Below are positions 25,601 through 42,609 of a DNA stretch of 64,000 nt, piece by piece. Numbering within the stretch: position 1 is the first letter of the stretch; each line of letters opens with the position of its first letter. The notes under the pieces are model-generated. The model saw only the letters and a list, made by a program, of their open reading frames with translations. It did no database searches and was not told the origin of the DNA. This DNA is from Pseudomonadota bacterium (GTDB lineage Bacteria > SZUA-182 > DTGQ01). A program made the position numbers and the translations under genes. The stretch spans positions 2,024 to 66,023 of the forward strand of contig DAOURK010000008.1 of the NCBI GenBank assembly GCA_030625085.1, read 5' to 3'.

Positions 25601-27956
25601 ATCTGTTTACATGGTCCGGCTCAGAGCTGATCAGAGCATAGGGCCCTCCGGGGGTTTGACTGCGATAGAGGTGATAGCCCCTGATATTCTCATCAGGATA
25701 TTTTTCCCAGCTAAGCTCAACCAGCCTTTTCCCTGCGGTTGCTATAAAGCCGCTCGGGGGTGCCAGGGGGGGGAGGGGGACACTTTTCAGCCTGCTCTGC
25801 CCTTTCTTGCCTGGCTTGGGCTTCGGGTTATGAACATTGAAGGCGGGGCTGGCCGCGCTGGTAACGTCGTAGTCTTTGCCGTGGCAATTATAGCAATGCG
25901 TGGTGCCGTCCGATTCATGGTGGCTCTGTTGTCCCATTTCAAGCTCGGGTATCGCGGCCATCACAATCCCGTCCACCTCGGGGCATTGGCCATTATAAAG
26001 CGTGCAGTTCGGATCATCGCTGGGCACATGACAACTGAAACAAAAAGGCCGGCATTGGCTGGCCATGGTTTTGGTGTCGATAATCCCATCATATCCCGGT
26101 CGCTGATCGCTGAGCAGATAGGCATTCGGTAGACCAATATCGGCATGTCCTCTAGTGCCGTGCGGATTATGGCAATTTGAGCAGGCCAATCTATCCCCCA
26201 CCTGAATATGATCCGGCCAGTAAGAAGCGCTGTTGGTGGACTTTCTGATCATATGACCTGCAGTTTCGGGATTTATGGATTTATTATAATAATGGGAGAT
26301 ATTTTTGTTTTCACTATCCATGCCGGCCGGACCATCATGGTCGTGACATTTTAAACACAGTTCATAGTTGAGCGGCTCATCGCCCTGAGAGGACCCCTTG
26401 GTGCTGAGATAGGTGTCAATGAGCATATCAAAGGCATTGCCCGTGCCGTGAGGAGAGTGGCAATTCACGCAACGTCCTACGCCGGACGAATCCTTTATCG
26501 GCATATCAGGATCATTCCGGTGTGGCGAAAAAAACTTCTGCGGCGGGCCATCATCCCAGGTGTTCGGGTTCTCAAAAACATCCATCCCGGGCCAGGCCAC
26601 CCGATTGTTGAGTCCGGGCGCCTTTGCCCCTGAGACAAAATATTCGAAATATCCCGGATAATCAGAGCCGGCCGGCGCCCTGTCTTCTTCCTGGGCCGGG
26701 TAGCCGGAATAGCCTCCCGTGGGCGTAAAATCGTGGCAACCCGTTGTATAACATAAGGCATTGGTATTATCGGTAAACAGATTGTAGTCCTTTCCGACGT
26801 GCTGAAGGTGACATTGGTTGCACTCTCCTTTGAGCCACCGATCATCCCTGGAAAGCCCCGTATCCGGATGGCCGTGGGGCGAAACATCATAAATTCCATT
26901 ATCCTCGTCGTCAGTCCCTCCCCTAAGGTGACATGCCTGGCAGGTGCCCACCATGCGCGAGCCGTCCTCAAGAGTGGATGTTTCCGGATCATCGTACATA
27001 AGACAAAAGAGCTGATCCGAACCGTGGGCTTTATGGCAGGAGGTGCACCCGGTTTCATTATCGCTTACGGATTTGGTACCGATCTCCCCTAAGGGCGAAA
27101 TGTAGGGAGGCCTGGATAAAACGAGGCTTGACCACCAGTATCCCAGACCACCGTCCGCGGTTCCATCGATATGTAGGTTAGTGACACCCTGCGCAAGAGT
27201 AATTCCCACCGTAGGATGCCTTATCCAGGTGTCCGTATCGAGGGCCTGTGTATCTCCAGATGAAGAGCCGCCCATATTGGCATCTCCCCCGTCGCCGTAA
27301 AACTGCCCATGGCAGCCCGCGCACCAGGCGGAAAGGCCGTAATTATTGTCTGACTCTGATTGGCGGTGTTTAATATTGCCGACCTTATAATGTTCGGCAA
27401 GAGGCGTATCGAGTAATTGTTGCACGGCAACATCACCCCCATAGGTCCCTGTTTCATAGGTCACTGTAATGTTGACGGCCTGACCCGGGTTCGTCCTCAA
27501 GTTGCGGTAATAGTCATTGCCATGGGGGTTATGGCAGGTGATGCAGGTCAGGGGATCACCCGACCACGTCCCCGAATAACCCGGTGGCGTGACAGTGCTT
27601 CCCAGGGAGTGCTTACTCGGAGAATTGGGATCAATGGACAATTCCCCGGCGCTGGAAATATAGCGTTCCTCCCCCAGTACATTGGGGGCTGAGGTGTCGG
27701 TGCCGTCATGGCACATCAGGCACATCTCATTGGTCAAATTCTTGAGCAGTCTTTCATAGGGGCCGGCTTGACCCCAATCGGCCGACACCCCGCCATCCTG
27801 GCTGTAATGAATAGTATGGCAATCCGAACAATAAAGATTTTTAGACCCGACATGGAAATCACCGGCCACAGCGGTTTTTTTCACCCATGGGCATAGCAAA
27901 AAGAAAAATAAGAAAACCATGGGTAAGAAGATATGTATTTTGGGCTTTCCAGTCAA
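22650..27956 (-). CDS. Giant 1768-aa extracellular fusion protein. An N-terminal multiheme cytochrome with about 13 hemes and an OmcS-like first-heme motif is followed by FN3-like and Ig-like (Big) domains.
   Basis: After the signal peptide comes DFHVGSKNLYCSDCHTIHYSQDGG, matching the CHTMHxSQDG motif of the OmcS-like paralogues. There are 12 CxxCH motifs plus 1 CxxxxCH in the first ~700 aa. FN3-like segments follow (YHLYRSQTPGGPY..., YYVYRR..., YRIYRG...), then C-terminal Ig-like repeats. Confidence 0.8.
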   Translation of the reverse strand: MTGKPKIHIFLPMVFLFFFLLCPWVKKTAVAGDFHVGSKNLYCSDCHTIHYSQDGGVSADWGQAGPYERLLKNLTNEMCLMCHDGTDTSAPNVLGEERYISSAGELSIDPNSPSKHSLGSTVTPPGYSGTWSGDPLTCITCHNPHGNDYYRNLRTNPGQAVNITVTYETGTYGGDVAVQQLLDTPLAEHYKVGNIKHRQSESDNNYGLSAWCAGCHGQFYGDGGDANMGGSSSGDTQALDTDTWIRHPTVGITLAQGVTNLHIDGTADGGLGYWWSSLVLSRPPYISPLGEIGTKSVSDNETGCTSCHKAHGSDQLFCLMYDDPETSTLEDGSRMVGTCQACHLRGGTDDEDNGIYDVSPHGHPDTGLSRDDRWLKGECNQCHLQHVGKDYNLFTDNTNALCYTTGCHDFTPTGGYSGYPAQEEDRAPAGSDYPGYFEYFVSGAKAPGLNNRVAWPGMDVFENPNTWDDGPPQKFFSPHRNDPDMPIKDSSGVGRCVNCHSPHGTGNAFDMLIDTYLSTKGSSQGDEPLNYELCLKCHDHDGPAGMDSENKNISHYYNKSINPETAGHMIRKSTNSASYWPDHIQVGDRLACSNCHNPHGTRGHADIGLPNAYLLSDQRPGYDGIIDTKTMASQCRPFCFSCHVPSDDPNCTLYNGQCPEVDGIVMAAIPELEMGQQSHHESDGTTHCYNCHGKDYDVTSAASPAFNVHNPKPKPGKKGQSRLKSVPLPPLAPPSGFIATAGKRLVELSWEKYPDENIRGYHLYRSQTPGGPYALISSEPDHVNRYMDKEVSPEQNYYYVLTVEDMPGMESTYSEEARATPVSLTPKELKTLEEVKGLSAKIEGDTICLTWEEDLDELVAGYYVYRRLEGEGPQWVRITRYEPLRWPVYEDRKIVKGKVYLYTVAAVDSMGNEARFPKEVRVSYEALYIFSVSLSQGEIPLKGGRQMVATLTGSPGQRAYFTIEGLAEPIFMEETDGTGTYIGKYLIPGETDQAQLKVTGFLDDGRGKIRSKESPFPLKIDNLPPPAPARLEAALNSDGSVSLLWPAAEEADEQIASYRIYRGLNEGITPDVNSRLASDLPPDRREYKDFDLRPDTRYYYLITSVDEAENESAPSSIAEVFVPPDTIPPFITEIRVIGEKEVWNLGENISLLMIGEPGCKAAFSLGGRIKDIVMIESFEKGRYEGKYVFQDVDEAEGMIITGRLTDPSGNSTSRTLSNRVSVVRRSAGAKPEIYAIEEDSFQVGGSVGLVTGDLFKIIVRGTPGCKGAFHLGAFVNEDRTVSLDWSGFSESDNPDISAYRIYRGTWPAFSPDKQNPLAMLGLGAREYQVTDNESDLNDSFFITAVNNDGHPRLISTPKRNIALMETDDPGTYESEYTVLPTERIIQGYVFASLRDEFGQYSLPFRSSHTITMDTESRIEVRPLPPELKADSLSRGRVLALLKNARGRGIADRQVGVTLFASSEYTGLVGLGKLNQADIGYVVNPLFGINDPTASGESYVFTTDGFGQISMEYQTGFAAKTIIFRAEDQITGDVGFGYLTSYLETQAQVEQYLPIEQAKARMRARGQEYYLSLSASPQWLTADGVGRSQIKAELIDRTGTPVKGHRITFIVSMGDGYLQPREAYTDAGGKAEVKYVAGRSIGTVEITATDVTATPPLGAKTHIILKSDAPAVLEVSVKPERIPADGKSTCTLTIKVTDINKNPCRGVAPSVRVISGGGKILKIDEITDFSGQARAVYQAGKEPGTAKFNVRVTSKIPTSKELEEIRWTR

Positions 27957-28005: not shown

Positions 28006-28305
28006 TCAAAAGACAAGCCTCTTGATTCCCTCTTTTAAAATAGGCACATTAAAATTTATAATAAGGCCTACCTTCATACCGGATAATCTTAAATAGGTTA
28101 GCAATTGTGCCTCGTGAATTGGCGCTATTGTATCAACTACTTTAAGTTCAAGAACAACCTTTTCTTCAACCACAATATCCATCCGATATCCACAGTCGAG
28201 CTTGATGCCTTTATATTCAAGGGGAAGAGGACTTTGTCGAGAGGGCCTGGAGACGACCTGCACCCTTTTCCAATACATAGACAATGCCTTTCGGATCAAC
28301 GGCAA
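28006..28305 (-). CDS. GxxExxY-family (PD-(D/E)XK-like) small protein. It appears N-terminally truncated and is possibly a remnant.
   Basis: The C-terminal consensus of this family is present (LEYKGI...GYRMDIVVEEKVVLELKVV...HEAQLLTYLRLSG...GLIINF). The N-terminal helical part with the GxxExxY motif is missing. The ORF's 5' end overlaps the 3' end of the NHL gene. Confidence 0.5.
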   Translation of the reverse strand: MPLIRKALSMYWKRVQVVSRPSRQSPLPLEYKGIKLDCGYRMDIVVEEKVVLELKVVDTIAPIHEAQLLTYLRLSGMKVGLIINFNVPILKEGIKRLVF

Positions 28306-29290
28306 TATCTACCGGATAGATAAACATACCCGGCACACGGCCACGCGCTCCGATATGGAATAGATATTGCTCCTCGGGGCTAAATACCTTAACTGAATGC
28401 CTGAAGGCATCTACAATAAAGATCCTGCCCTCGCTATCCGCCGTAAGGCTGCTGGGGAATGAAAAACTGTCGTCATATAAAGCCCCATGTCGGCCAAAAG
28501 AAGAAACACGCTTGCCCTCAGGGTCCATGACGATAACGACCGGTGAGCCTTGGGCCGTAGTTACATATATCTTCCCTTTCGGGCCTACACCCAAGCCGGT
28601 CGGCAAAAGGCTTTTTTTATCTTTCCAGTGTTTACCGAGTCTTTTAATCACTTTACCCCCACCGGACATGACCCACACTATTCCCGTACTCCGGTCAATA
28701 ACCAGAAGGTTGCCTTGATGGTCGAAAGCCATTCGCCCCGGTGTTAATTCCCATCCCTTTTCATTCTTTTCCTTAGGGATGTTGGGGAGGGATGCTCTCC
28801 AGATACCTTTCCGGTCAAAAACCTCAATCGTTTTTTCGCTGATTTGGCTGATATATACACATTCGGATGATCCTTGATGATTTCCGATGACCAAATCAAA
28901 AGGCCGTTTAAGAGGCCGGGAGGTGTGAAATTGGCCGGCGGCATGACCATCAGTACCAAATATCATTACCCGATTGTTGTCAGTATCGGCCACATATATT
29001 CGAGAAGAATCAGTATTTAGGCAACACCCTTGAGGCCGCTTTAAGGGCAGGCCATCCGGTAAGCCGCTTGTCTGCCACAGGGCTTTATAGGTAATTTTCA
29101 GTCCTTCGGCCGATTTCGCCCTATCTTTTGTCCCCAAGTTTGAACTGCTTGAACTATTTGTATACGGCTGTTTACAAATAGCGTCGCTGGGCATACATAT
29201 TGGGGTTATTAAAAATATAAAAAAAGAGAGGGTAATATAGAGGGTATAACTCACGCTAAAAATTAGCCCTTTTCCCCTGTAATACATCAT
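28217..29290 (-). CDS. NHL-repeat beta-propeller protein, the partner of the OmcS-like cytochrome at 29313-30560.
   Basis: NHL blades are visible (IYVADTDNNRVMIFG, VYISQISEKTIEVFD, IFIVDAFRHSVKVFS). The track start at 29416 overlaps the upstream gene by about 100 nt. I chose Met43/44 at 29290, which gives a signal-like N-terminus MMYYRGKGLIFSVSYTLYITLSFFIF. Confidence 0.65.
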   Translation of the reverse strand: MMYYRGKGLIFSVSYTLYITLSFFIFLITPICMPSDAICKQPYTNSSSSSNLGTKDRAKSAEGLKITYKALWQTSGLPDGLPLKRPQGCCLNTDSSRIYVADTDNNRVMIFGTDGHAAGQFHTSRPLKRPFDLVIGNHQGSSECVYISQISEKTIEVFDRKGIWRASLPNIPKEKNEKGWELTPGRMAFDHQGNLLVIDRSTGIVWVMSGGGKVIKRLGKHWKDKKSLLPTGLGVGPKGKIYVTTAQGSPVVIVMDPEGKRVSSFGRHGALYDDSFSFPSSLTADSEGRIFIVDAFRHSVKVFSPEEQYLFHIGARGRVPGMFIYPVDIAVDPKGIVYVLEKGAGRLQALSTKSSSP

Positions 29291-29312
29291 TAAAATAATG
29301 ATAAAAATTTCT

Positions 29313-30560
29313 CTAATTTTTCCCTGAATGGCAAATCTTACATCCCGTGTTTTTACCATCATCGGCCTCCACCTGCTCATAATCCCAGCGAAGGATGTCT
29401 GGATAGGGTGAGGCATGGGCCCGATGACAGGAAAGACACATCACCTGATCATTGCCTCCATATCCGTTCCCTGTGCTTACCTTAAGTCTCTCAGAAGGAG
29501 TTATATAAGGCTCCAGATTTTTCCTGGCTACCGGGGCATCTAAATTATATTCCGTGTAGGCATCAAATTCTCCTCCCTCCGGCAATCCGATATGCGCAGG
29601 GTGTCTAAACCAGGGGCTGGCATTCACTCCCTCAGGGGAGGTTTTATCTTTAGCATGAAAATTCCCATGACAACCCCCGCAAGAATCACTTATCGAGTGG
29701 TCCGGATCGGCAGAGGTTGCATCTACATTACTTCCCTTATATTGATTAATTGGATAGTCATCCCCTTTTGATTGCTCCCAGTCGTAAGATTCAATGCCGT
29801 GAATTCCACTAATTTCAGCATCATGCCCCTTCAAAAAACGATAACAACCCACAGTATGATCCACTATGAGATTATAATCATCCGGGTTATTACTGACATG
29901 ATCTTCCGCATGATGGCTCTTTCTTATATTAGTATGGCAGCTTTTGCAGCCGCAATAAGGTTCATCGATAAGCGCCTGGTCACCGTTTAAGTTATGATCT
30001 CTTCCATTAAGATATTTATGGCAAGGAATACATGTGCCGGCATAAAGTCCGCTTTCCGTTCTGCCGGGGGCATCGTCCAACTCGGAATCCTTGAGGGAAA
30101 TACCCTCTGTTGCATCGATCCCACCAGGGCCGGCCAAAATATTGTGCCCTCTATCATCCCCAAGCGTCATCCAATAAAAATTACCACCTGCAAGTTCCTT
30201 ACCATCAGCCGGCTGTTGAGTATTATAGACAATGGGAATTCTGCTTGTCCCCGGATCAGCCGGATCGCCTCCCACATATTTAATGGTCTCGCTTCCCGTG
30301 TTGGAGTGACACCCGATACAATCAACCTTAGTTAAGGCGGAACCAGGCAGAGTGCCGCCGCCGATACCGTAGTTGACTGGATTTTGTATGTTTTCGGACG
30401 TCCCTTCCTGGCTGGTGTGCATAGTATGACAATTGTCACAATTTCCGGTAACCTTGGCCATGGAACGGGCCGGATTCGTAAATATGACTAATACGGCGAC
30501 AATACAACAATGCATAATAAAATGTAAACAGTGTTTATGCGCCTTTCCTTTCCCTCTCAC
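29313..30560 (-). CDS. OmcS-family (nanowire-type) multiheme cytochrome c with 7 CxxCH motifs.
   Basis: Signal peptide, then AKVTGNCDNCHTMHTSQEG. An internal MCLSCHRAHASPYPDILRW matches what I recall of the OmcS heme-5 region (NCLSCHRAHASGF...). The protein ends ...GCKICHSGKN. No alignment was run. Confidence 0.65.
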   Translation of the reverse strand: MRGKGKAHKHCLHFIMHCCIVAVLVIFTNPARSMAKVTGNCDNCHTMHTSQEGTSENIQNPVNYGIGGGTLPGSALTKVDCIGCHSNTGSETIKYVGGDPADPGTSRIPIVYNTQQPADGKELAGGNFYWMTLGDDRGHNILAGPGGIDATEGISLKDSELDDAPGRTESGLYAGTCIPCHKYLNGRDHNLNGDQALIDEPYCGCKSCHTNIRKSHHAEDHVSNNPDDYNLIVDHTVGCYRFLKGHDAEISGIHGIESYDWEQSKGDDYPINQYKGSNVDATSADPDHSISDSCGGCHGNFHAKDKTSPEGVNASPWFRHPAHIGLPEGGEFDAYTEYNLDAPVARKNLEPYITPSERLKVSTGNGYGGNDQVMCLSCHRAHASPYPDILRWDYEQVEADDGKNTGCKICHSGKN

Positions 30561-30704
30561 TTTAGCCCCCTTTCAACCCCCCATGTTAAATTACATAGTT
30601 TCATAAGTATACAAATAATCTTTTTGTTTTACAAGTAATAATCGGGTTTACCCACCAATTCTCATTTTGAACTTTTCGTTTTAAAAAACTCACTAAAACA
30701 ATAC

Positions 30705-31799
30705 TCAATCGATTATCCGAAACAATTCTACTCGTTTATTAAATAAATCTGCCACAGCCAACATACCATTTTTAGTTACGGCTAAATCCTGGGGGTGATT
30801 AAACCATCCGTGGTCAGTTCCACTCCCCCCGAATTCAGCTAAATAAGAGCCGTCACTATCATATACATTCAGGCAATGTCTCATATAATCGGTAATATAG
30901 ATCCTCCCCTTTTGGTCAACAGCAATGCCTCTTGGTCTGCTTAATGTGCGCGGGACGCCGCCTTTTCTTCCAAATTTAAATAAAAATTCAAATTTTTGAT
31001 TATATACAAATACCCTTCCCAGGGTTTCGCTTAATAAATAAATATTATCTTCTTTATCCAAAGCCAGATCACGAATCACCACCGGCTTGGGCTCTTTGCC
31101 CCTAAGGGCATCTATGGGGGTTAACATTCCGGAAAAAACCCCTTTTTTATCTAACACCACCACCCCCGGTTGGGTATAGCCGGCAAGATAGATTTTTTTC
31201 TCTTTATCTAAGGCTATAGCATTGGGGACAAAGGTTTTTGCTCCTTTAAACCCTTCAAATTGTATGGTCTTAATCTTCTTGCGATTAAAATTGAAGACCG
31301 AAATGAATGAGGATTTTTTTTCTGCAGAATTCTCTACGGCATAGACCTCTCCTTCTTCACTCACGGCAAAAAAAAGCGCGGAAATAAGACCCTGGCCTTT
31401 AGAAAGCGTGGCGCTTGGTTGGTATAAGTCACTGAAGATATAAAGTGTTTTAGCACCATCCCCCAGTATATACATTTCATCATAAGCATCGATATAAATA
31501 CAGGTAGGAGATCCTATTTTCTTTGTTTCGAATGCAGCCAAAGTGGAGGTATATTGAATCTGCGGTTTCTTGGGAGATTCAGCACAGGTTGCCTTTCCCT
31601 GAATGGCGCTGAAAAACAGAATGAGCGCCAGGATAAAAATCTTCCTGATAAATAGCGCCTGAACGCCTCCCCCTTTTTTGGTCCTTTCAACGACGTCAGA
31701 TTTCTCGCATTGCTTTTGATTTATTTTCATTCGGTCACTCAAGAGCAGTGCCATTAGATAAAATCCCTTCTTGGCAAAGCCTGTAAAAATTAAAATCAA
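30705..31799 (-). CDS. NHL-repeat beta-propeller protein, the partner of the OmcS-like cytochrome at 31838-32887.
   Basis: Blades seen: IYITDYMRHCLNVYDSDG, LAVADLFNKRVELFRIID. An N-terminal hydrophobic anchor (IFILALILFFSAIQG) is present. Confidence 0.65.
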   Translation of the reverse strand: MILIFTGFAKKGFYLMALLLSDRMKINQKQCEKSDVVERTKKGGGVQALFIRKIFILALILFFSAIQGKATCAESPKKPQIQYTSTLAAFETKKIGSPTCIYIDAYDEMYILGDGAKTLYIFSDLYQPSATLSKGQGLISALFFAVSEEGEVYAVENSAEKKSSFISVFNFNRKKIKTIQFEGFKGAKTFVPNAIALDKEKKIYLAGYTQPGVVVLDKKGVFSGMLTPIDALRGKEPKPVVIRDLALDKEDNIYLLSETLGRVFVYNQKFEFLFKFGRKGGVPRTLSRPRGIAVDQKGRIYITDYMRHCLNVYDSDGSYLAEFGGSGTDHGWFNHPQDLAVTKNGMLAVADLFNKRVELFRIID

Positions 31800-31837
31800 A
31801 GAAAGAGGGCCAACCCTCTTCCTTTGATTTTTACCGG

Positions 31838-32887
31838 CTATCTCTGGTTATTATGACAGCTTAAGCATCCGGGGACATCCCCATCGCCGGCAATCTGTAA
31901 ATCATAGTCAAATCGTAAAATATCATTATTCCCCGTGCCGTGGGCTCGATGACAGGACAAGCAGGTAACCCTTCCTACCTTCGTTTCATCTGCCTCGGCA
32001 AATCCCAGAGGATTATTCACTCTGTCCTCATCATCATAATTTGTATCATGTGCAGTACCATTATCATTGACGATTCCCCAGGTCTCCTCGTAACCTCCGC
32101 CTGTATGGGGGATATCAATATCTGTAGGATGGCGGACAAAGGGCGATGAGCCCTGTAAATGAAAATTACCATGGCATTTTCCGCAAAAATCACTAATAGT
32201 TACCTCATCCTCTCCAGCGCTATAGACATTATAATTAGGGTCCGATGAAGCACCGGTAATTAAACCTTCTTCATAATCGCCACACCCCTTACCAACAACA
32301 GGGTCCCCATCTACATAAAGCATCCGATAGGTGGAACTAACATTGTGATGCCCTTTTTTGATTGCTTCAGTATCATCAACTGAGGTTTGATTTCCATGAC
32401 ACCCTGTGGCTCCGGCGCAGGTGAACTTATGTTCACCGCCGTCATCTCCCTTATACCAATCCTCCCCAGAGGGATTATATCCCACAGGTGTTTCCGTACT
32501 CCCCAGGGTATGACTATTATCATCATGGTTTTCATCGTCAGTATCATCAGTAAAAAAGCCACCGGCCAGACACTGACCATCACTTAAAGCCGTACCTTGA
32601 ACAAAAGGCGTATGATAGGTATCATCACGGGGATCGGTGCTGCCGTCCGGCGCAGTATGGCAACCGATACAATCATCTTTCAATAAGATTTCATAGGGCC
32701 CCTCCATGCCGTATTCCAGAGGAACGGTGCCATTCTGGCTGTAATGCATAGTATGACAATCATTGCACGAGCCGCCGACATCGGCCCCGGCAATATTTCC
32801 GGTAGCCACTATAATCAAACATGATACAGCTAAAACCATAGAATTTAATATGATACTTTTTATCTGTTTGGTGATATGTTTCATCAT
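31838..32887 (-). CDS. OmcS-family hexaheme cytochrome c.
   Basis: Motifs seen: ADVGGSCNDCHTMHYSQNG, CIGCH, CAGATGCH (CxxxxCH), CGKCHGNFH, VTCLSCHRAHGTGNNDILRFDY. The C-terminal end is ...GCLSCHNNQR. Confidence 0.65.
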   Translation of the reverse strand: MMKHITKQIKSIILNSMVLAVSCLIIVATGNIAGADVGGSCNDCHTMHYSQNGTVPLEYGMEGPYEILLKDDCIGCHTAPDGSTDPRDDTYHTPFVQGTALSDGQCLAGGFFTDDTDDENHDDNSHTLGSTETPVGYNPSGEDWYKGDDGGEHKFTCAGATGCHGNQTSVDDTEAIKKGHHNVSSTYRMLYVDGDPVVGKGCGDYEEGLITGASSDPNYNVYSAGEDEVTISDFCGKCHGNFHLQGSSPFVRHPTDIDIPHTGGGYEETWGIVNDNGTAHDTNYDDEDRVNNPLGFAEADETKVGRVTCLSCHRAHGTGNNDILRFDYDLQIAGDGDVPGCLSCHNNQR

Positions 32888-33007
32888 TACTCTAACCTCC
32901 TATAACCTCTCTTTTAACCTTAAAGTTAACTCCAGGATTATGCCTTCCGGCACAATCAGACCTATCTTCATTGTTTTTTTATTTGGCCGGCCGATTTACA
33001 CCTCCCT

Positions 33008-34045
33008 TCATTTTTTTCTATGTTTAGTTTGAAATATCTGTACTCTTTTATTGAACGTATCGGCCACAAACAACCTGCCTTTATTGTCAATACATATATC
33101 TTTGGGATAACTGAACCATCCCGGCCCCCAGCCTTCGCCCCCGAACTCATTCATGAACTCACCGGAAGAATCAAATGTTAAGAGGGTGTGTCGCATGTAG
33201 TCCATGACGTAAGTCACGCCATCTGCGGGATCAACAGTGAGCCCCTGGGCTCGGCTCAGTTTGCCGGGGCTTCCGCCTTTTTTGCCGAATGCCCGTATTT
33301 TTTTCTCTCCTTTGATATCGTATACGTGAACCTGACCGTGCCATTCGCTCAAAAGATAGATATGGTCTCCTTTCAGGGTTACTCTGTTCACATCCGCTTT
33401 CTTTTCCTCTCCGCTTCTTTTTTTTCCAAAGGGTTCAATGGCCCTTATAAATTCGCCCTTTCTATTTAAGATAATCAGCTTTCCACAAGAGCCGCCGGCA
33501 AGGTAGAGATTCCCTTTCTCATCTACGGCTATGTCCCTGGCCCTAAAGCTTTTGGCCCCGGCAAAGCCTTCAAAACGTATTGTTTTCCTCTTGCGGCCAA
33601 GGGGATCAAAAACCAGAATCAGGCCCTTCCCCGCATTACAGGTGATTTCTTCGGAAACATAGATCATCCCCTTGGTATCCACAGCCACACTTAAGGGAGA
33701 CTTAAGCCCATGAGATTTATCTATTACTGATATGGGGATAAAATTCTTGTCATAAATCAACACCTTCTGAAGACCGCTATCCAGGATATAGATCTCTCCG
33801 TTTTGGGTGACGTAGACATCGGTAGGAAATTGTAACGAGACATCCATCCCCGATTTAATGGCATCTAAATAAGTAATTTTTTTCTTATCAAAGGCGTAAC
33901 AGGTGATGGGTGCTGCTATGATGAACAATAGGGAGGAGAGGATTGATATCAAGCACAGCAAGGCGCAAACAGACAATCGCCGGGGAGGGATTTGTCTTTT
34001 TGTTGTTTCGGTAGTTTCTGTTGTTAGACTTAAGATGCTTAACAC
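33008..34045 (-). CDS. NHL-repeat beta-propeller protein, the first gene of the minus-strand array.
   Basis: Blades seen: IYVSEEITCNAGKGLILVFD, TYVMDYMRHTLLTFDSSGEF, LFVADTFNKRVQIFQ. An N-terminal TM segment (ALLCLISILSSLLFIIAAPI) is present. Confidence 0.65.
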   Translation of the reverse strand: MLSILSLTTETTETTKRQIPPRRLSVCALLCLISILSSLLFIIAAPITCYAFDKKKITYLDAIKSGMDVSLQFPTDVYVTQNGEIYILDSGLQKVLIYDKNFIPISVIDKSHGLKSPLSVAVDTKGMIYVSEEITCNAGKGLILVFDPLGRKRKTIRFEGFAGAKSFRARDIAVDEKGNLYLAGGSCGKLIILNRKGEFIRAIEPFGKKRSGEEKKADVNRVTLKGDHIYLLSEWHGQVHVYDIKGEKKIRAFGKKGGSPGKLSRAQGLTVDPADGVTYVMDYMRHTLLTFDSSGEFMNEFGGEGWGPGWFSYPKDICIDNKGRLFVADTFNKRVQIFQTKHRKK

Positions 34046-34100
34046 TGCCTGATACCTATAAAATCAACTTTGTCTAAATAGGCCGGGTTACTATTCTTTG

Positions 34101-34196
34101 GTCATTTTTTGTCTTTTCGATTTATTTTTAGATTTATTTTTAGTCATTTCGATTTATTTTTTTGTCATTTCGAGGAGCCTTAGCGACGAGAAATCT
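34101..34196. repeat. Degenerate tandem copies of (T)TCATTTCGATTTATTTTT ending in a half-copy of the 9246 element (GTCATTTCGAGGAGCCTTAGCGACGAGAAATCTT).
   Basis: Read directly from the sequence. There are 3-4 tandem ~20-bp units and then a 33-bp segment about 85% identical to 9246-9278. Confidence 0.55.
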
Positions 34197-35251
34197 TCAA
34201 ATTCGAGAAAGTGTATGGGGATTTTTACACTAATTGCGCATTTTGGCGAGATTCTTCTGTCAAAAAATCGTGAAGAACTGGTCCCCCCTTGTGATCCTAG
34301 ATGCTGTATGGTTTTTATTACAGTTAAATTTTAATTCGGGCAGATTTGTGCACAATAAAATTGTATACCTTATAAACTTTATCGGTTAATTAGTCAAGTA
34401 TTATCTGTATGTGCTGCTAATAAATTTAAAAAAATGTGGGGTGACTCGGTAGGAATTTATGAAGGGAAAAATGCAATGCTGATTTTAGAGGCCGGTTTTA
34501 TCGAGTGTAAGGTTTTTTTTACACTAATATCCCGTTTTGGGAAAATTTGTTCCCAATCATCATTAACTTTCCTGAAAATTGAATGCTCATAACCCGCCTT
34601 TTTCCCATTTAATTAATAAAATTATGCATTGTCTTTCATATCTTAAATTGGATCAAAAAAATAAATAAAGCTATTAATAACAAAGAGTTATCTTAATTAA
34701 ATACAAAATATATAAAAATATGCAAATTTCTTCATAATTTCTAATACGAATATACGTAAATTATTACCCGTTTTGGTGAATTGATAAGGGAAACACCCCT
34801 AAAAATTAACAATTATATTATTAATGGATATTTATTCTATTTAATTGGAGTATTTTCTCAATGGCATAATTTTTGCGGCCCTTCAAAGAAAACAATATTT
34901 TCCCCCCTTCGGGGAGTGTGTCAAATTTTAGCACCAATATATTTTTCACTATATATATAAAGGAAGGTATGGTTCAACAGTAAAGACACAGAAATTCCCC
35001 AAAAATCCATAAATATATTAAGTAAAAAATATATCTTAGACAAGGCACAAATTATGCATTTTATAGGTCACAAATAATCAAGAATTGGGTAGTAATTTCC
35101 AACTCATGAGCATGAGCGTGTGACCTCTAAGGACAAACTGTCAACAAAGTCCATCAATAAAGGCTTAAAAGGCAAAATCCCCGGCAAATGAAACGATACG
35201 TGTCTTTACTGCCATACCCGTAAGGATGGCTAAGGTTATTGAGGGTGGTTA

Positions 35252-35773
35252 ATGAGAGAGAGCTGTTTTTTAAAGAAAGCATTGCATGATACTTCAAGCA
35301 ATCGCGGTCGGATGAGCGCACAATCGACTGAACCCTCGATTGTGCACGGATCTTCTCACACCACATATCCTAAAGGCTCAGTCCCCGCTCATCGGTGGGT
35401 CATCGATAATCGATCCGCCATCTTTAATCAAAGGACAATTGCCAGCCTATGTGCAATCTCCGGTCGAATTTTAATCGTTTCGGCCATTCTCCTTTTCTTT
35501 CTTTGTTCGTATTTGTGTGTTTTCGCCCAGGAGGCAGAATATGACAAAGACAAGATAAAGTATCTGACCGCCATTCACGCATATGGCGAAAGAGATTCAT
35601 TTAGCCGCCCTACGGATATATTTGTTGATTCTCGCGGGGATATTTACCTGGCCGATTTTTCAAAAGCATCCGTCTTTATCTTTGACAGCGATTTTATGCC
35701 TGTGGCCAAAATAGACAAGGTCAACGCCGCCCCTGGCCAGATTGCATTCAGCAAAAGGGATCAGGGTTTATAA
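35252..35773 (+). pseudogene. Truncated duplicate of the 5' end of the NHL gene at 36963-37913. Only about 90 aa are homologous.
   Basis: Protein ...AQEAEYDKDKIKYLTAIHAYGERDSFSRPTDIFVDSRGDIYLADFSKASVFIFDSDFMPVAKIDKVN aligns with the N-terminus of 36963-37913. DNA at 35560-35748 versus 37068-37248 is about 85% identical and includes a 47-bp identical run. Homology stops abruptly at 35748, and a stop follows 8 codons later. Confidence 0.6.
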
Positions 35774-35834
35774 ATCAAGGTTGTAAGAGGAACACAAACA
35801 AGGTTGTAGGGTAGGGAAAGTAGGTATATCAGAA

Positions 35835-36959
35835 ATGATGAAAGACCTAAAACTTATTTACCGAAGATCGCTATCGATTCATTATTTATTATTTGTGGTG
35901 ATTATTATTGCCTGCTTATCCCGGATACTTCAAAGACAGGCCAAGGCCAAGGTAACAGGCGAATGTGTGAACTGCCATACCATGCACAACAGCCAGGATG
36001 GGACCGCTGTGGATCCAAATGGGCCGAATCAGTATTTGCTTTCAAAATACTGTGTGGGCTGCCATTCGGCTACTGATGGATCTACATGGAAGGACCCTAT
36101 CACGGGGGCCCCCATTGTATATAACACGGCAGAGCCGTCTTACAATACGCAAAAGGGCCTGGCCGCAGGAAATTTCTATTACGTGGCGCAGGATCAAAGT
36201 AAAGGACACAACGTTACTGATATCCCGGGAGTGAGCAAAGATGACAATTTTCCGCCAACCCCTGGCCGCTGGGACGATGACGAAGACAATACGAAGAATT
36301 GTGGGGAGTGCCATGATCAGGGCCCGTCCTTACTTGTCGGCAGAACCTATCAAAATGTGTATTACAGCGGCTGTGAGTTTTGCCACGGTATATATGGTTC
36401 GCATCATGCTGATGATACTATTATTGACGGCCTTACTCAAGGCACAAGTTACCGCTTCCTGAAGACCTATGTCCACTGGGGTCATTCCGCGATCACAGGG
36501 GTTAAAGGCATTGAAGATAATGACTGGGAAAAAACCGTTGACCCAAACGATCATAATGAATATTGCGGAAAGGATGGCATAACGGAATCAAAACACTCAA
36601 TAAGTAGATATTGCGGCCATTGCCATGGAAAATTCCATGGAGCAGAGGATACCGGAAGCGTCTCTCCCTGGATTCGGCACCCCTCAGAAAATGACTTGCC
36701 GAGTGGCGACACTGAATATGCAGAGTATACCATTTATAATCCCGAGGCGCCCATTGCCAGGGATCCGGCGATTCTTGCAACCATGAACGGGCCTTCCAGA
36801 GAAGTAACAAGCGATGACCAGGTCTCGTGCATCTCCTGCCACAGGGTACATGGCAGCCCTTACGCTGATATACTCAGATGGAATTATAGCACTATGAAAG
36901 TGGGCGGAACAACAACCGGCGGATGTTTTACCTGCCATACCACCAAGAATGGTTTATAG
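35835..36959 (+). CDS. OmcS-family heptaheme cytochrome c.
   Basis: Motifs seen: AKAKVTGECVNCHTMHNSQDGT, CVGCH, CGECH, CEFCH, CGHCHGKFHG, VSCISCHRVHGSPYADILRWNY. The C-terminal end is ...GCFTCHTTKNGL. Confidence 0.65.
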   Translation: MMKDLKLIYRRSLSIHYLLFVVIIIACLSRILQRQAKAKVTGECVNCHTMHNSQDGTAVDPNGPNQYLLSKYCVGCHSATDGSTWKDPITGAPIVYNTAEPSYNTQKGLAAGNFYYVAQDQSKGHNVTDIPGVSKDDNFPPTPGRWDDDEDNTKNCGECHDQGPSLLVGRTYQNVYYSGCEFCHGIYGSHHADDTIIDGLTQGTSYRFLKTYVHWGHSAITGVKGIEDNDWEKTVDPNDHNEYCGKDGITESKHSISRYCGHCHGKFHGAEDTGSVSPWIRHPSENDLPSGDTEYAEYTIYNPEAPIARDPAILATMNGPSREVTSDDQVSCISCHRVHGSPYADILRWNYSTMKVGGTTTGGCFTCHTTKNGL

Positions 36960-36962
36960 CAT

Positions 36963-37913
36963 ATGTTAAAAAAGAAGGTTTTTAGAATAATGAAAATTAA
37001 AGGGATTGTGGCTTTAGTCATCTTATTCTCTTGCTCTCATGTCTTTGCTCAGGCGGGATATGAAAAAAACAAGATAAAGTTTCTGACCGCCATTTACGGA
37101 TACGGGGAAAGAGATGCATTTGACCGCCCCACGGACATATTTGTTGACTCTCGCGGGGATATTTATCTGGCTGATAGTTATAAAAAGGCAATTTTTATCT
37201 TTGACAGCGATTTTATGCCTGTGGCCAAAATAGACAAGGTCAACGGCTTGCTGGCCAGACCGCTGAGTGTGGCTGCAAATGATGAGGGGGTCCTCTTTGT
37301 TTCAGAAGAGTCAATAGGAAATAAACCCGGACGACTTCTTTCTTTTAATTTTAGAGGGGAATTCAAAAAACAGATTAAATTTAAAGGCTTTAAAGGGGCT
37401 GATAGGTTTTCTGCTCTTGATATGGCCGTGGATAAAGAAGGCAATCTGTACCTGGCCGGAGGCAAAGCCGGCCTGGTCATTTTAGATAAAGCCGGCAGGT
37501 ATTTAAAAACTATCCGGTCGGGCAGTATCAATAGCGAATATATAAGGTGTGTGGAGGTAAAGGGCGGAAATATCTTTGTCTTTAATTCAGGGACCTGCCG
37601 TATTTATGTTTATGACCGGGAAGGCAACTTTATTATTAAATTCGGAAGGGCCGGAGGGGTTGCCGGCACATTAAGCCGCCCCCAGGGGTTGGCTGTAGAT
37701 AATCAAACAGGCTTGATTTATGTTGCTGATTATATGCGACACTGCTTGACTGTATATGATCAAAAGGGCAAATACCTTTTTGAATACGGGGGGCTAGGCA
37801 CAGGAGCGGGCTGGTTTAACTATCCTAAAGGCATCTTTATTGATCACGGGGGAAGATTGTTAGTGGTGGACACTTTTAATAAACGGGTCCAGGTTTTTAC
37901 TATGAGGGACTAA
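36963..37913 (+). CDS. NHL-repeat beta-propeller protein, coupled 4 nt after the OmcS-like gene.
   Basis: Signal sequence IVALVILFSCSHVFA. Blades seen: IYLADSYKKAIFIFD, LYLAGGKAGLVILDKAG, IYVADYMRHCLTVYDQKG, LLVVDTFNKRVQVFT. Confidence 0.7.
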   Translation: MLKKKVFRIMKIKGIVALVILFSCSHVFAQAGYEKNKIKFLTAIYGYGERDAFDRPTDIFVDSRGDIYLADSYKKAIFIFDSDFMPVAKIDKVNGLLARPLSVAANDEGVLFVSEESIGNKPGRLLSFNFRGEFKKQIKFKGFKGADRFSALDMAVDKEGNLYLAGGKAGLVILDKAGRYLKTIRSGSINSEYIRCVEVKGGNIFVFNSGTCRIYVYDREGNFIIKFGRAGGVAGTLSRPQGLAVDNQTGLIYVADYMRHCLTVYDQKGKYLFEYGGLGTGAGWFNYPKGIFIDHGGRLLVVDTFNKRVQVFTMRD

Positions 37914-38156
37914 AATTATTCTCTGATCATTTTGGCGAAGGAGGTGGTAAATTGAAAAATTTTTCATTTGGTTTTTATTATTGGGATGTATCAACTAAAG
38001 CCCAAAAAAATGTAAATGTAATAGAAGCGAAAGAGAGGTGATGCCAAAGGCTTATACCAAGACATGGATTGACTTAAGTATAGTCAATCTTATCGCGATC
38101 TAATGGCATTATTAAGCATTAGATCTTAACTTAAAAGGATCAGGAGGAAACAATTT

Positions 38157-39314
38157 ATGAGATATGCAAAGGCTTTAATGATACTTTTTTTAGCTGTCAC
38201 CTTAGTCGGCACAATTGTTTTTACTTCAAATGATGCCATGGCCAAAGTCGGTGACAATGTAGAGGCGGTATGCAGCGTCTGCCACACCATGCACCATAGT
38301 CAGGATGGAACTGATCCGACTAATCCCAATGATGAGACCCAGTCCGTGGGGCCGAATAATGCGCTTCTTTATGGTGACAGTAGCGGCAATAATGCCACCT
38401 GCGTTGCCTGTCATACTGGTTCCGGAGGCACTCACGCTACTTTAGGTTACGATGAGGAAACCGGTGCGCCTATAGTCGACCTTGCTGCGGATAAGCAATT
38501 GGCCGGTGGGACGTATGTAGCCGGTACTGATAAAACACGACATAATGCTCTAGGAATTACTGGTGCAGATGCCACCATACCAAATGATGGCGTAAGCGGA
38601 GGCGATATACCGCCCGGAGGCGCCAACAGCGATATTGGCGATGCCTTGCAGATTACCTGTGCCGGAACAACCGGATGTCACGGCGACAGAGCCGAAAGTG
38701 ATAATGTTAAGTCCGTGCACGGCGCCCATCATCTTGATGATAGGACAATAGATGGAACCAAGATAGGGAAAAGTTATCGCTTTTTAGGCATTGATGTTTC
38801 AGGCAGTTCGTTTTCCTCCGGCGACGGTGTGGATGGGTTGGAGCATGATCACTGGGAATCGGGCCAAGAGAATAGTTTATTTGCCAACAATACCCTTAAT
38901 GCTGATGATCATAATGTTTATGATGCTGAAGGTATTAATAGGGTCTGTGCGAGCTGTCACGGCGATTTTCATGGAACTGATCAGGGTACAAGCGAGCCTT
39001 GGATAAGACATCCCACTGATATTACCTTAGAAAGTGCTGCTGATGAAGGTCCCTCAGCCGAATATGATGAGTATCCTAATACAGCGGGAGGTGAGCTTTA
39101 TTCCACTGAAGCCCCAGTTGGTTTTACAGTTGCCCAGGCTGATGGTGAAGCTAACGTTGATGCAAATGACGGGCAGGTGCTTTGTATTTCTTGCCATCGA
39201 GCCCATGGATCAGAATGGGATGATATTTTGCGCTGGAATTACGATGCTATGCTGGCTACAGGAGGGGAAGGCTCTGTAAATACCGGTTGTAATCGCTGTC
39301 ACACCACAAAGTAA
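38157..39314 (+). CDS. OmcS-family hexaheme cytochrome c, a Gly/Asp-rich variant.
   Basis: Motifs seen: AKVGDNVEAVCSVCHTMHHSQDGT, CVACH, CAGTTGCH, CASCHGDFHG, VLCISCHRAHGSEWDDILRWNY. The C-terminal end is ...GCNRCHTTK. Confidence 0.65.
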   Translation: MRYAKALMILFLAVTLVGTIVFTSNDAMAKVGDNVEAVCSVCHTMHHSQDGTDPTNPNDETQSVGPNNALLYGDSSGNNATCVACHTGSGGTHATLGYDEETGAPIVDLAADKQLAGGTYVAGTDKTRHNALGITGADATIPNDGVSGGDIPPGGANSDIGDALQITCAGTTGCHGDRAESDNVKSVHGAHHLDDRTIDGTKIGKSYRFLGIDVSGSSFSSGDGVDGLEHDHWESGQENSLFANNTLNADDHNVYDAEGINRVCASCHGDFHGTDQGTSEPWIRHPTDITLESAADEGPSAEYDEYPNTAGGELYSTEAPVGFTVAQADGEANVDANDGQVLCISCHRAHGSEWDDILRWNYDAMLATGGEGSVNTGCNRCHTTK

Positions 39315-39515: not shown

Positions 39516-40052
39516 TTATTTTCCGGGTGCTGTCTTCGGTCTTTGTTTTTCAGATTTGTTTTTCATTTTCAGATAAGTCTCTTCAAGATTGTATCGGGAC
39601 GTCTCATTATCCGGATCTAACCGGATAGCCTCATTAAGGGCCAAGATAGCTTCCGGGTAATTGCCCATTTCGCCATAGGCCGCGCCCAGATTGCAGTATG
39701 CCTTGGCATATTTAGGATTATATCGAATAGCTTGCTTATAGGACCGAATCCCTTCAGGATAGTTCCCCATTTTACAAAAGAGCACGCCTAAATTATAATG
39801 GGCATGGGGCAATCGAGGGTTAATACGAAGGGCCTCTTTATATGCCTCAAACTCTTCCTTCATACGGCCAAGATTGCCGTAACCTTTCCCGAGATTAGAA
39901 TGACCTCTTGCCTTGTTGGGAGTTTTCTTGACCACATCAGACCATAGCGACAAATCATCCTTCCAGACAGTATTCCTCACATAAGTGGCCGTGCTGAACA
40001 GTAACACCAAACAGCTCATTAGTATTAATTCGCAATATTGATTTGGTTTCAA
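39516..40052 (-). CDS. Membrane-anchored TPR-repeat protein, paralogue family member 1.
   Basis: N-terminal TM segment, then the conserved TATYVRNTVWKDDLSLWSDVVKK motif. TPR repeats follow (HSNLGKGYGNLG, AHYNLGVLF, AYCNLGAAYGEMGNYPEAI). Confidence 0.7.
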   Translation of the reverse strand: MKPNQYCELILMSCLVLLFSTATYVRNTVWKDDLSLWSDVVKKTPNKARGHSNLGKGYGNLGRMKEEFEAYKEALRINPRLPHAHYNLGVLFCKMGNYPEGIRSYKQAIRYNPKYAKAYCNLGAAYGEMGNYPEAILALNEAIRLDPDNETSRYNLEETYLKMKNKSEKQRPKTAPGK

Positions 40053-40056
40053 ATGA

Positions 40057-40557
40057 TTAGGGGCCTTTCATCTTAAGATACGCCTGTTCAAGATTGGATT
40101 TGGCCGTTGCATCTTCCGGGTTTAAGCGAATTGCTTTCTTAAGGGCTTTGATGGCTTCCGGGTAATTGCCCGTTGCCCCGTAAGCCGCACCCAGATTACA
40201 ATATGCCTTAGCATAATCAGGTTTAAATCTGATAGCCTGTTTATAGGAGCGAATCTCTTCAGCATAATTCCTCATTGCACCAAAGAGCACGCCCAAATTA
40301 TAATGGGCCATGGAAAATCGCGGGTTAATACGAATGGCCTCTTTATAAGACGCAAACTCTTCCTTCATTCGCCCACGCGCCCCATACGCCTTGCCAAGAT
40401 TATAATGCCCTCTGACTTTGTTGGGGGCTTTCTTGACCACATCCTTCCATAGAGACAATTCATTTTTCCAGACAGTATTCCTCACATACGTGGCCGTATT
40501 GAATATAAATAGCAAACATATCATAATTACAAATTCAATATATTGCTTTGGGTTCAT
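40057..40557 (-). CDS. Membrane-anchored TPR-repeat protein, paralogue family member 2.
   Basis: About 70% identical to 39516-40052, with TATYVRNTVWKNELSLWKDVVKK and the same TPR layout. It lies 4 nt downstream of its paralogue. Confidence 0.7.
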   Translation of the reverse strand: MNPKQYIEFVIMICLLFIFNTATYVRNTVWKNELSLWKDVVKKAPNKVRGHYNLGKAYGARGRMKEEFASYKEAIRINPRFSMAHYNLGVLFGAMRNYAEEIRSYKQAIRFKPDYAKAYCNLGAAYGATGNYPEAIKALKKAIRLNPEDATAKSNLEQAYLKMKGP

Positions 40558-40857
40558 AGGCGAAGAAAATCCATATAATAAAGGTAATGGCTTAATTCAT
40601 ACTTTAACCACAATAATTTAAAATATCCTTAAGACTATAGAAGACAGGATATTTCTGTTAATTCACTTTTCTTAAAAGTAGATAATATACATATTTTCAT
40701 AAGCGTACATTATAATTAAAAAATGTCAACCTATGCATAATCATTTAGTCCTTTGACTTTTTCTTTCCATTCAGATACACTGGCCTAAATATTCTTTAAT
40801 TATTCTATATATTTATCAGTTAAAAAAGGGATAGCGATAATAAAATGCCATATACTT

Positions 40858-41778: not shown

Positions 41779-41832
41779 TTAATATTTTAATAAATATAAT
41801 TTTGCAGTATGATTTCAAATTGTATTTGAGCT

Positions 41833-42609
41833 TCAATGCCCATTGTATTGCTTTGGATTTTGATTATTAACCGCTCTTTCAATCATCTTAATAAAGGTAT
41901 TGATCTTTTGTGCCAAGGGATGGTTTGGTTTCACCTTTTGCCCCTTTTTAAAATATAACAGGGCCTTATCATAATCTCTTTTATGTTCCAAATAGGTCTT
42001 GCCAAGATGATAATAAACGAAAATATCTTCCGGGGCAAGCTCTATGGCTGTTTTATATTCTTGAATACTCTCATCAATCAATCCTATCTGACCGTAAAGC
42101 GTGCCCATATTAAAATGCACATCCGGCTCATTAAATTTTTGCTCACAGGCTTTTTTGTATTCGGTGAGCGCTTCTTTAAGCTTCCCCTGCTTATGGTAGA
42201 TAAGGCCAATATTATAATGGACTTCATTATTTTCAGGATTTAGGCCAAGGGCTGTTTTATATAAAGCCAGGGCCTCATCAAATTTGCCCAGATTGTAATA
42301 ATCAACGCCAAGATTTAAGTAACCCTTGGCATAATCAGGGGCCAGGGTGATTACTCTTTTATGTTCTTCTATGGCCTTTCGGGTTAAACCGGCCCTGTCA
42401 TAAGCATTGCCTAGATTCACATGCGGTCGCGGCTTTAGCGGAGATTTAAGAGCAATATCTCCCCATAAAGTCAGTTCATTTTTCCATAGTATGTTTCTCT
42501 GGTATGTTAAGGTGGAAAAGATACTTATTAGAGCAATAAAAGGAATTAACTCACACAATAGTAATAAGTGAGCTTTCATATCCATAATCTTTACTCTGTA
42601 TCTGAACAA
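41833..42609 (-). CDS. Membrane-anchored TPR-repeat protein, paralogue family member 4.
   Basis: N-terminal TM segment plus TLTYQRNILWKNELTLWGDIALK, followed by TPR units. Confidence 0.65.
   Translation of the reverse strand: MFRYRVKIMDMKAHLLLLCELIPFIALISIFSTLTYQRNILWKNELTLWGDIALKSPLKPRPHVNLGNAYDRAGLTRKAIEEHKRVITLAPDYAKGYLNLGVDYYNLGKFDEALALYKTALGLNPENNEVHYNIGLIYHKQGKLKEALTEYKKACEQKFNEPDVHFNMGTLYGQIGLIDESIQEYKTAIELAPEDIFVYYHLGKTYLEHKRDYDKALLYFKKGQKVKPNHPLAQKINTFIKMIERAVNNQNPKQYNGH

Follow-up and report, generated by a model that had tools for sequence, protein, structure and literature searches.

The 64,000-nucleotide stretch of DNA analyzed here (the window) comes from a Pseudomonadota bacterium (assembly GCA_030625085.1, contig DAOURK010000008.1) and carries an array in which genes for cytochromes resembling OmcS, the nanowire cytochrome of Geobacter, alternate with genes for NHL-repeat beta-propellers. 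We think it probable that this region is an enlarged osc-type (omcS-companion) cluster of an uncultured Gram-negative bacterium, in which OmcS-type wires would be assembled with the help of NHL scaffolds. Two elements are new: amplified NHL paralogs that keep specific downstream partners, and an OmcS-like domain fused to an immunoglobulin (Ig)-like stalk. The osc-type cluster and the presence of an NHL gene beside an OmcS-type cytochrome gene are already known. A sequence-only reading of the window had called the alternating genes an undescribed module. That claim did not hold, since the osc system whose type of gene set the window carries, the G. sulfurreducens protein GSU2505 (PMC9070056, in its accessible parts) and the NHL clusters of D. 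ferrophilus (PMC5815863) had already been published.

All four cytochrome open reading frames (ORFs) proposed in the sequence-only reading were confirmed, together with their first-heme motif, internal motif and C-terminal CxxCH. On the minus strand are cyt1 (29313-30560; 415 amino acids [aa], 7 CxxCH) and cyt2 (31838-32887; 349 aa, 5 CxxCH and one C-x5-CH), and on the plus strand are cyt3 (35835-36959; 374 aa, 7 CxxCH) and cyt4 (38157-39314; 385 aa, 5 CxxCH and one C-x5-CH). All were assigned to the OmcS family, with pairwise identities of 28-37% by BLASTP. Each begins with a signal peptide followed by C-x-x-CHTMH-x-SQ(D/E/N)G, has the internal motif C(L/I)SCHR(A/V)H(A/G)(S/T)...DILR(W/F)(N/D)Y and ends with a CxxCH located 3-6 residues before the C-terminus. 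The C-x5-CH, which reads C-A-G-x-x-G-C-H, falls at the heme 3 position of OmcS (residue 157 in cyt2 and residue 168 in cyt4). This atypical heme site is common to 19 of the 30 family members inspected, and in the 7-heme members two ordinary CxxCH motifs replace it.

The match to OmcS was examined with profiles and with single sequences. When a profile of 30 family members was compared with the sequences in the PDB, OmcS (6ef8, residues 8-348) was matched at E = 1.5e-26, while the next-best match was at 0.0098 and neither OmcE (7tfs) nor OmcZ was matched at E <= 1. A profile built from the four paralogs also matched OmcS (E = 5e-13), as did cyt1 alone, co-linearly, with residues 39-393 against 7-346 (phmmer, E = 1.9e-4). 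One local match of cyt3 to OmcE 7tfs (E = 0.1) was not significant. By these alignments, cyt1-4 and the N-terminal ~340 aa of a fusion protein of 1768 aa, described below, are members of the OmcS family, and the window cytochromes are a divergent subfamily of it. At least 1216 database members of this 6/7-heme subfamily were found at E <= 1e-3, in Thermodesulfobacteriota, Nitrospirota, Spirochaetota and unclassified metagenome-assembled genomes (MAGs).

The heme ligands were compared using residue numbers of the OmcS sequence taken from the 6ef8 alignments. The second histidine of CHTMH aligns to His16 of OmcS and the histidine of CLSCH to His332. In the published OmcS filament structures, His16 of one subunit and His332 of the next ligate heme 5 across the interface. 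Along with these two, His110, His147, His243, His257 and His335 are kept in cyt1-4 and in the N-domain of the fusion protein; His247 is retained in all four cytochromes and is a tyrosine in the fusion protein. In the 30-member alignment, 90% or more of the sequences keep the equivalents of His16 and His332. The CxxCH motifs of hemes 1, 2, 4 and 5 align with OmcS in every OmcS-type protein of the window, and heme 3 varies: cyt2 and cyt4 have C-x5-CH there, and in cyt1 and cyt3 the site is doubled. Overall, six bis-His heme sites are present in OmcS order, of which heme 3 is the variable one; the C-terminal CxxCH, outside the HMMER alignment, lies near the protein end as in OmcS homologs. The OmcS layout that the sequence-only reading had given for these proteins, including the His16 equivalent, was thus borne out by the profile match and the aligned ligands. 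The OmcS termini and heme-5 region named in that reading were also seen: close OmcS homologs have the mature N-terminus FHSGGVAECEGCHTMHNS and the C-terminus CNKCHAKD, and OmcS itself carries NVNCLSCHRAHASGF. In two proteins from other metagenomes, P0066 and P0100, CHGLY and CHTVY replace CHTMH and the His16 equivalent is lost. These two may be non-polymerising relatives that could serve as natural negative controls.

The array is followed by genes resembling the nanowire assembly machinery of Geobacter. A publication of 2025 described the osc system as a widespread machinery for assembling OmcS nanowires (as cited in PMC13194489, part of which was accessible). According to the accessible literature, an eight-gene block, GSU2500-GSU2493, located after the OmcS-like gene GSU2501, is tied to nanowire maturation and secretion, and GSU2495 is a 26-heme protein. 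The accessible portion of PMC13194489 gives oscC as GSU2501, oscI as GSU2495 and oscJ as GSU2494, lists OscC as periplasmic, and assigns OscH to folding, OscE, OscF and OscG to secretion and OscD to wire morphology. The Osc position names used here (OscD-K) were deduced from the gene order of related genomes and the published gene numbers. Every window protein was searched with phmmer against the ORFs of at least 80 loci that encode close relatives of OmcS, at 45-64% identity to it. Among the sources of these loci are Geobacteraceae, Geomonas, Citrifermentans, Anaeromyxobacter, Nitrospirota, Rokubacteria and Acidobacteriota; G. sulfurreducens itself lies outside the set. The canonical order in these loci was an NHL gene, one to six OmcS-like genes, a 7-blade propeller, a ~2.2-kb gene, homologs of the window proteins p203 and p209, a peptidyl-prolyl isomerase (PPIase), a ~26-heme cytochrome and a ~16-heme cytochrome; in loci sequenced far enough, a second NHL gene comes last. 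The published gene order agrees with this one and, therefore, the window holds an osc-type cluster.

In the direction of transcription, the minus strand of the window reads NHL3-cyt2-NHL2-cyt1-NHL1-fusion protein and then continues with the osc-type homologs. At the putative OscE position is a 550-aa protein (20905-22557) with no Pfam family, which matched L042 12808-15042 at E = 2.9e-12 and gave weak matches in 5 loci; it is ~200 aa shorter than its ~730-aa counterpart, which lies after the 7-blade propeller in canonical loci. The OscF position is held by p203, a 203-aa LpoB-like lipoprotein (20194-20805) with a weak Pfam LpoB match and homologs in 60 loci, matching OscF-position genes at E values down to 3e-30. 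Two exported proteins of ~205 aa, p209 and p205 (19549-20178 and 18778-19395), occupy the OscG position, and both match a single ~390-aa gene there (E down to 4e-19). Each of the two has a signal peptide, and a VLPFEN-type motif is common to them. They are followed by a 161-aa 5-heme cytochrome (18296-18781) and its partner, a 195-aa membrane protein (17706-18293), a pair that recurs in L129, L132 and L157. The SurA-like PPIase at the OscH position (16010-17725) has Rotamase_2 and SurA N-terminal domains and homologs in 46 OmcS loci. The 657-aa cytochrome at the OscI position (14012-15985; 25 CxxCH and one atypical motif) and the 447-aa 16-heme cytochrome at the OscJ position (12745-14088; 16 CxxCH) matched their counterparts at E values as low as 1e-134 and 3e-122, respectively.

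The last member of the set is a 479-aa YVTN/YncE-type 7-blade propeller lipoprotein of the OscD type (11190-12629), with matches to Pfam Lactonase and YNCE and to PDB 1l0q (E = 3e-45). Its homologs in 59 loci lie directly 3' of OmcS-like genes. In the window it sits after the 16-heme cytochrome, so it is relocated relative to the canonical order, and further cytochromes lie beyond it on the minus strand. The identity of OscD was set by gene order (oscC = GSU2501, oscI = GSU2495, oscJ = GSU2494), not by comparison with the GSU2500 sequence. The idea that OscD is an NHL protein was considered and rejected: the gene at the GSU2500 position is of the YncE/lactonase 7-blade type, as the L005 ORF matches YNCE and Lactonase. 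The gene order and these family matches therefore identify OscD as the 7-blade propeller.

The window contains five NHL propeller genes and one fragment. The interleaving of NHL and cytochrome genes described in the sequence-only reading was supported by the Pfam NHL family (PF01436), strongly for five genes and weakly for the fragment. NHL0 (3534-4661, plus strand; strong match) precedes a 28-heme cytochrome (4686-8267, plus strand), in which 28 CxxCH motifs were counted, in agreement with that reading. On the minus strand, NHL3 (33008-34045; E = 3.5e-20), a six-bladed propeller with an N-terminal signal or anchor, comes first in the array and is followed by NHL2 (30705-31799; E = 1.9e-12) and by the divergent NHL1 (28217-29416; E = 1.5e-18), which precedes the giant fusion protein. 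On the plus strand, NHL4 (36963-37913; E = 3.4e-24) begins 3 nucleotides past the cyt3 stop. The plus-strand fragment (35252-35773) is a truncated remnant, a partial duplicate of NHL4, and shares with the 5' end of NHL4 a 195-nucleotide segment at 86% identity (60% aa identity over 103 aa). For the full propellers, the repeats were backed by matches to Pfam NHL, DUF5128 and SBBP. In the PDB, the NHL domains of TRIM71, Thin and Brat match the window NHL proteins at E values from 1e-39 to 1e-24.

The longest ORFs of NHL1 and NHL2 probably begin too far upstream. The longest ORF of NHL1 overlaps the 3' end of cyt1, and its real start is probably near 29290. That of NHL2 begins within a hairpin (31792-31831, minus strand), which has an 18-bp stem and then a T-run directly past the cyt2 stop, and the NHL2 start codon is therefore probably more downstream. 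This hairpin is terminator- or attenuator-like by consensus match only. Counts of terminator-like sites in the window were not above shuffled expectation, and only the hairpin after cyt2 stands out. It recalls the attenuators found 3' of major-subunit genes in pilus operons.

Several features of the NHL proteins bear on where they would act. Those of the OmcS loci have Sec signal peptides with AxA-type cleavage sites, and a crude regular expression found no lipobox in 80 of 82 of them, compared to a lipobox in 44 of 70 7-blade propellers and 50 of 71 p203 homologs. The proposal that the NHL proteins are lipoprotein anchors was thus unsupported by this crude test. No heme motifs were present in any of the NHL proteins. 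An invariant histidine in DYMRH was considered as a surrogate heme ligand and rejected, as it occupies the normal N-H-R position of the NHL repeat. Some NHL homologs are fused to an OmpA peptidoglycan-binding domain (L170 10001-11527; P0169, P0170 and P0174), and these fusions lie in the usual NHL slot of the cluster, after the OmcS-like gene and before the 7-blade propeller. A location in the periplasm, in association with the cell wall, is suggested by this. We favor the inference that the NHL proteins are soluble periplasmic binding scaffolds that would hold cytochromes, or hand them over, before secretion.

Next, the association of NHL and cytochrome genes was followed in other genomes, where it was found to recur in dozens of unrelated ones. 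Among the OmcS loci listed, an NHL gene lies directly 5' on the same strand in 47 of 73 and directly 3' in 4. Loci without an adjacent NHL gene are mostly cut by contig ends or hold orphan-like paralogs. For the window's own cytochrome subfamily in metagenomes, an NHL gene was present in 12 of 32 loci that have at least 1.2 kb on both sides. This subfamily occurs either within osc-type clusters or as stand-alone genes, the Thermosulfuriphilus copy being an orphan. Proteins from D. ferrophilus and from Nitrospirae, as well as the NHL-OmpA fusions, are among the closest relatives of NHL2-4, and in all three of the NHL contexts inspected the gene has an OmcS-like gene on one side and a 7-blade propeller on the other, within an osc-type cluster. 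All sampled members of the NHL subfamily sit in an osc-type cluster. In a Spirochaetota locus, three cytochrome genes, an unrelated 216-aa gene, an NHL gene and two cytochrome genes come before the 7-blade propeller. NHL genes are, then, a frequent and position-conserved but non-obligatory part of osc-type clusters. The sequence-only reading had paired each cytochrome with an NHL gene: the pairing is conserved beyond this genome, but a strict one-to-one arrangement is not general. The match of the family profile to OmcS as the only significant hit in the PDB and the recurrence of the adjacency in dozens of genomes indicate more than chance.

The individual NHL paralogs could be traced in related genomes. 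Thermodesulfatator atlanticus (L003) and the MAGs GCA_049472335.1 (L085) and GCA_016934595.1 (L086) share with the window the cytochrome subfamily, the NHL subfamily (up to 61% identity) and a second NHL-containing module described further below. Orthologs of the NHL paralogs, at 54-61% identity, have the same downstream partner in related MAGs as in the window. NHL3 has orthologs in L086 (1233-2240) and L085 (7940-8788) at 60-61% identity, and NHL2 has one in L086 (7603-8529) at 57%. The NHL4 ortholog of L085 (8802-9773) is directly followed by the cyt4 ortholog, as in the window, and orthologs of cyt2 are found in L086 (6392-7423) and L087 (6430-7425). NHL1 is 5' of the giant fusion protein in both the window and L085, and the window, T. 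atlanticus and L086 all have NHL0 5' of the 28-heme cytochrome. L086 also repeats the order NHL3...cyt2-NHL2...cyt1, with extra cytochromes inserted. Since the orthologs of each paralog keep the same downstream partners, the NHL duplications are old and have been kept over time, and this speaks for paralog-specific roles. Overall arrangements differ: T. atlanticus has cyt-cyt-NHL, L086 has NHL, four cytochromes, NHL and two cytochromes, and L085 has cyt-NHL-NHL-cyt-NHL-fusion. Among these four, only the window has one cytochrome per NHL throughout.

The most distinctive element of the locus is the fusion protein (22650-27956, minus strand; 1768 aa). Its N-terminus opens with CSDCHTIHYSQDG, so it does reuse the first-heme motif of the cytochromes, as had been noted from the sequence. 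The OmcS-like N-domain is followed by further hemes and an Ig-like stalk of ~1400 aa, and the protein has fn3, Big_1 and invasin-D3 Ig-like domains and 12 CxxCH in total. Its ortholog in L085 (12473-17824) has 1783 aa and is likewise preceded by an NHL1 ortholog (11550-12473, 54% identity). We conjecture that the fusion protein may tether an OmcS-type filament to the cell surface or seed its growth there.

These findings can be combined in the following proposal. The window cytochromes would be exported by Sec and loaded with heme in the periplasm, where the PPIase would help them fold. They would then be passed to the lipoprotein and channel components, secreted and polymerised end-to-end through the His16-type contact. 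The NHL propellers would act as soluble periplasmic scaffolds, each holding or delivering one particular cytochrome before export. By duplicating the NHL genes, this lineage would have given each cytochrome sub-block its own partner, including the surface-tethered fusion protein, which could tether or nucleate the filament, and the 28-heme cytochrome.

Several observations weigh against this proposal. The identity of the window cytochromes to OmcS is just 24-30%, and CH-x-x-H occurs in 92 of 104 OmcS-type ORFs; of the 49 at the OscC position, 47 have it. Since the motif is family-wide, it is not by itself evidence of filament formation; it is needed for filaments but not diagnostic of them, because the OscC-position paralogs, which are not known to polymerise, have it as well. 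An AlphaFold2 model of cyt3 based on the 30-sequence alignment was unusable (predicted local distance difference test score [pLDDT] 53, predicted template modelling score [pTM] 0.48), and Foldseek found no PDB matches for it; the poor model is probably due to the absence of hemes from the modelling. Among the Geobacter paralogs, only OmcS is a proven wire. In L005 and L006, histidine kinases are located upstream in place of an NHL gene, many family members stand alone without an NHL neighbor, and the number of cytochromes per NHL gene elsewhere ranges from 1 to 6. An obligatory one-to-one chaperone is, therefore, not supported. Finally, the window NHL proteins score 139 bits against the NHL domain of eukaryotic TRIM71 compared to ~80 bits against the Geobacter-type OmcS-adjacent NHL proteins, so that a common origin of the two rests mainly on position and cluster type.

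Some of these points would also fit a different arrangement, in which the OmcS-like proteins are monomeric hexa- or heptaheme carriers of the periplasm or cell surface, within a trans-envelope conduit, and the NHL proteins stabilize an outer-membrane complex. Deng et al. (2018) proposed such a stabilizing role for the NHL propellers that D. ferrophilus co-expresses with outer-membrane cytochromes (PMC5815863). OmcS being the only proven wire among the Geobacter paralogs and OscC being listed as periplasmic in the accessible text are in line with it, as are the many stand-alone family copies without nearby machinery and the pairing of NHL0 with a 28-heme non-OmcS cytochrome in a module that contains a cytochrome b. 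However, the genes immediately downstream of the array look like the full set for secretion and assembly that is associated with OmcS nanowires, and the inter-subunit His16 equivalent is conserved along with the other heme ligands. Furthermore, the 80 of 82 NHL proteins that have no lipobox or membrane anchor are a poor fit to a component of an outer-membrane complex. We regard the monomeric carriers as a real but distinctly less probable explanation.

It is improbable that the NHL proteins are instead enzymes, such as a lactonase, a lyase like peptidyl-alpha-hydroxyglycine lyase (PAL) or a related hydrolase, that modify the cytochromes or their glycans. Weak Pfam matches to SGL/gluconolactonase and arylesterase and a weak PDB match to PAL (E~1e-5) point in this direction. 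A polysaccharide and glycosylation block adjoins the array, and OmcE-type wires can be glycosylated (bioRxiv 10.1101/2025.10.22.684050). The enzyme-family matches are below or near thresholds, however, and non-catalytic binding NHL domains are far better matches (E~1e-39). The residues conserved across the NHL subfamily, including the DYMRH histidine at its usual repeat position, are generic fold positions. An alternation without functional meaning, produced by tandem duplication and rearrangement in a cytochrome-rich island, is the least credible explanation and we give it very little weight. The truncated NHL copy with its 195-nucleotide repeat does record a recent rearrangement, and the ratio of cytochromes to NHL genes varies between relatives. 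On the other hand, the NHL paralogs are old and maintained, with their partners unchanged in other MAGs, and the adjacency spans several phyla.

Assembly of OmcS-type wires with NHL scaffolds by an osc-type cluster thus remains the explanation that we favor. A broader version of it is put forward here tentatively, as an idea with more chances of being wrong than right: NHL propellers could be a general class of dedicated periplasmic partners for extracellular multiheme cytochromes, which in this lineage diversified into client-specific paralogs. The clients would be the OmcS-type subunits, the filament-seeding or filament-anchoring fusion protein and the 28-heme conduit, and the locus would build several wires, or one heteropolymeric anchored wire, under paralog-specific control. 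From the faithfulness of the NHL paralogs to their partners across genomes, specific NHL-cytochrome complexes can be predicted in a concrete and testable way, and the locus and its relatives provide a compact natural set of cognate and non-cognate pairs. The fusion of an OmcS domain to an Ig-like stalk hints at how a wire might be tethered or started at the surface, a question that has been raised for OmcE wires (bioRxiv 10.1101/2025.10.22.684050). In addition, the osc-type system now extends to a divergent 6/7-heme subfamily.

The nearest described system is the osc cluster of Geobacter (GSU2505/2504-GSU2493; Shen et al. 2025, Cell Chem Biol), as far as its accessible description goes. The window has in common with it the propeller, a putative OscE-position protein, the LpoB-like lipoproteins, the PPIase (OscH) and the ~26-heme (OscI) and ~16-heme (OscJ) cytochromes. 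Both also have an NHL gene beside the cytochrome genes, which in Geobacter is GSU2505, and, by position, a second NHL gene ends the Geobacter block. In the accessible text of PMC9070056, GSU2505, adjacent to omcS in G. sulfurreducens, is annotated as having an NHL repeat domain and shows an anode phenotype, and it was earlier suggested that OmcS assembly or expression requires it. The published functional assignments concern the PPIase, the channel-like proteins and the 7-blade propeller, and the accessible texts give no demonstrated function for the NHL protein. The window differs in its cytochromes, which have low identity to OmcS and 6 or 7 hemes, with C-x5-CH in two, and in its NHL genes, of which it has five paralogs and a fragment, compared to one or two in Geobacter. 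The OscD-type propeller is relocated, two ~205-aa genes take the place of the single gene at the OscG position, one part of the array has the opposite orientation, and an OmcS-like domain is fused to the 1400-aa Ig-like stalk.

The clusters of D. ferrophilus IS5 likewise combine NHL propellers with multiheme cytochromes, and one of its NHL proteins, P0182, is a member of the window NHL subfamily and is encoded between genes for an OmcS-like protein and a 7-blade propeller. Deng et al. drew no link between these NHL proteins and OmcS-type wires or the osc machinery. A second NHL-containing module of the window (489-8267, plus strand) is of this general type. It is composed of an MtrC-like cytochrome, a cytochrome b, a small cytochrome, NHL0 and the 28-heme cytochrome, and it recurs in T. 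atlanticus L003 (14521-19449), L086, L155 and L162.

The OmcE clusters of Desulfuromonadia always include beta-propeller lipoproteins and a large beta-barrel, and glycosyltransferase, methyltransferase and tetratricopeptide repeat (TPR) genes often follow them (bioRxiv 10.1101/2025.10.22.684050), as on the right of the window. OmcE differs in being tetraheme and unrelated in sequence, and the propellers of its clusters are lipoproteins, in contrast to the window NHL proteins, which have no lipoboxes. The right part of the window (39516-57224) begins with four small TPR genes, continues with a sulfatase, a B12/radical SAM enzyme, GT4 glycosyltransferases and methyltransferases, and ends with a pyruvyl transferase and a polysaccharide flippase. 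It resembles the glycosylation block reported beside the Geobacter omcE nanowire clusters.

An Rfam scan of the window returned no matches. Between the two divergent arrays is an AT-rich intergenic region (34046-35251). It contains a 44-nucleotide direct repeat at 34210-34253 and 34504-34547 (75% identity), and each copy includes the palindrome AGTGTA-N-TACACT. The repeat may be a regulator-binding site.

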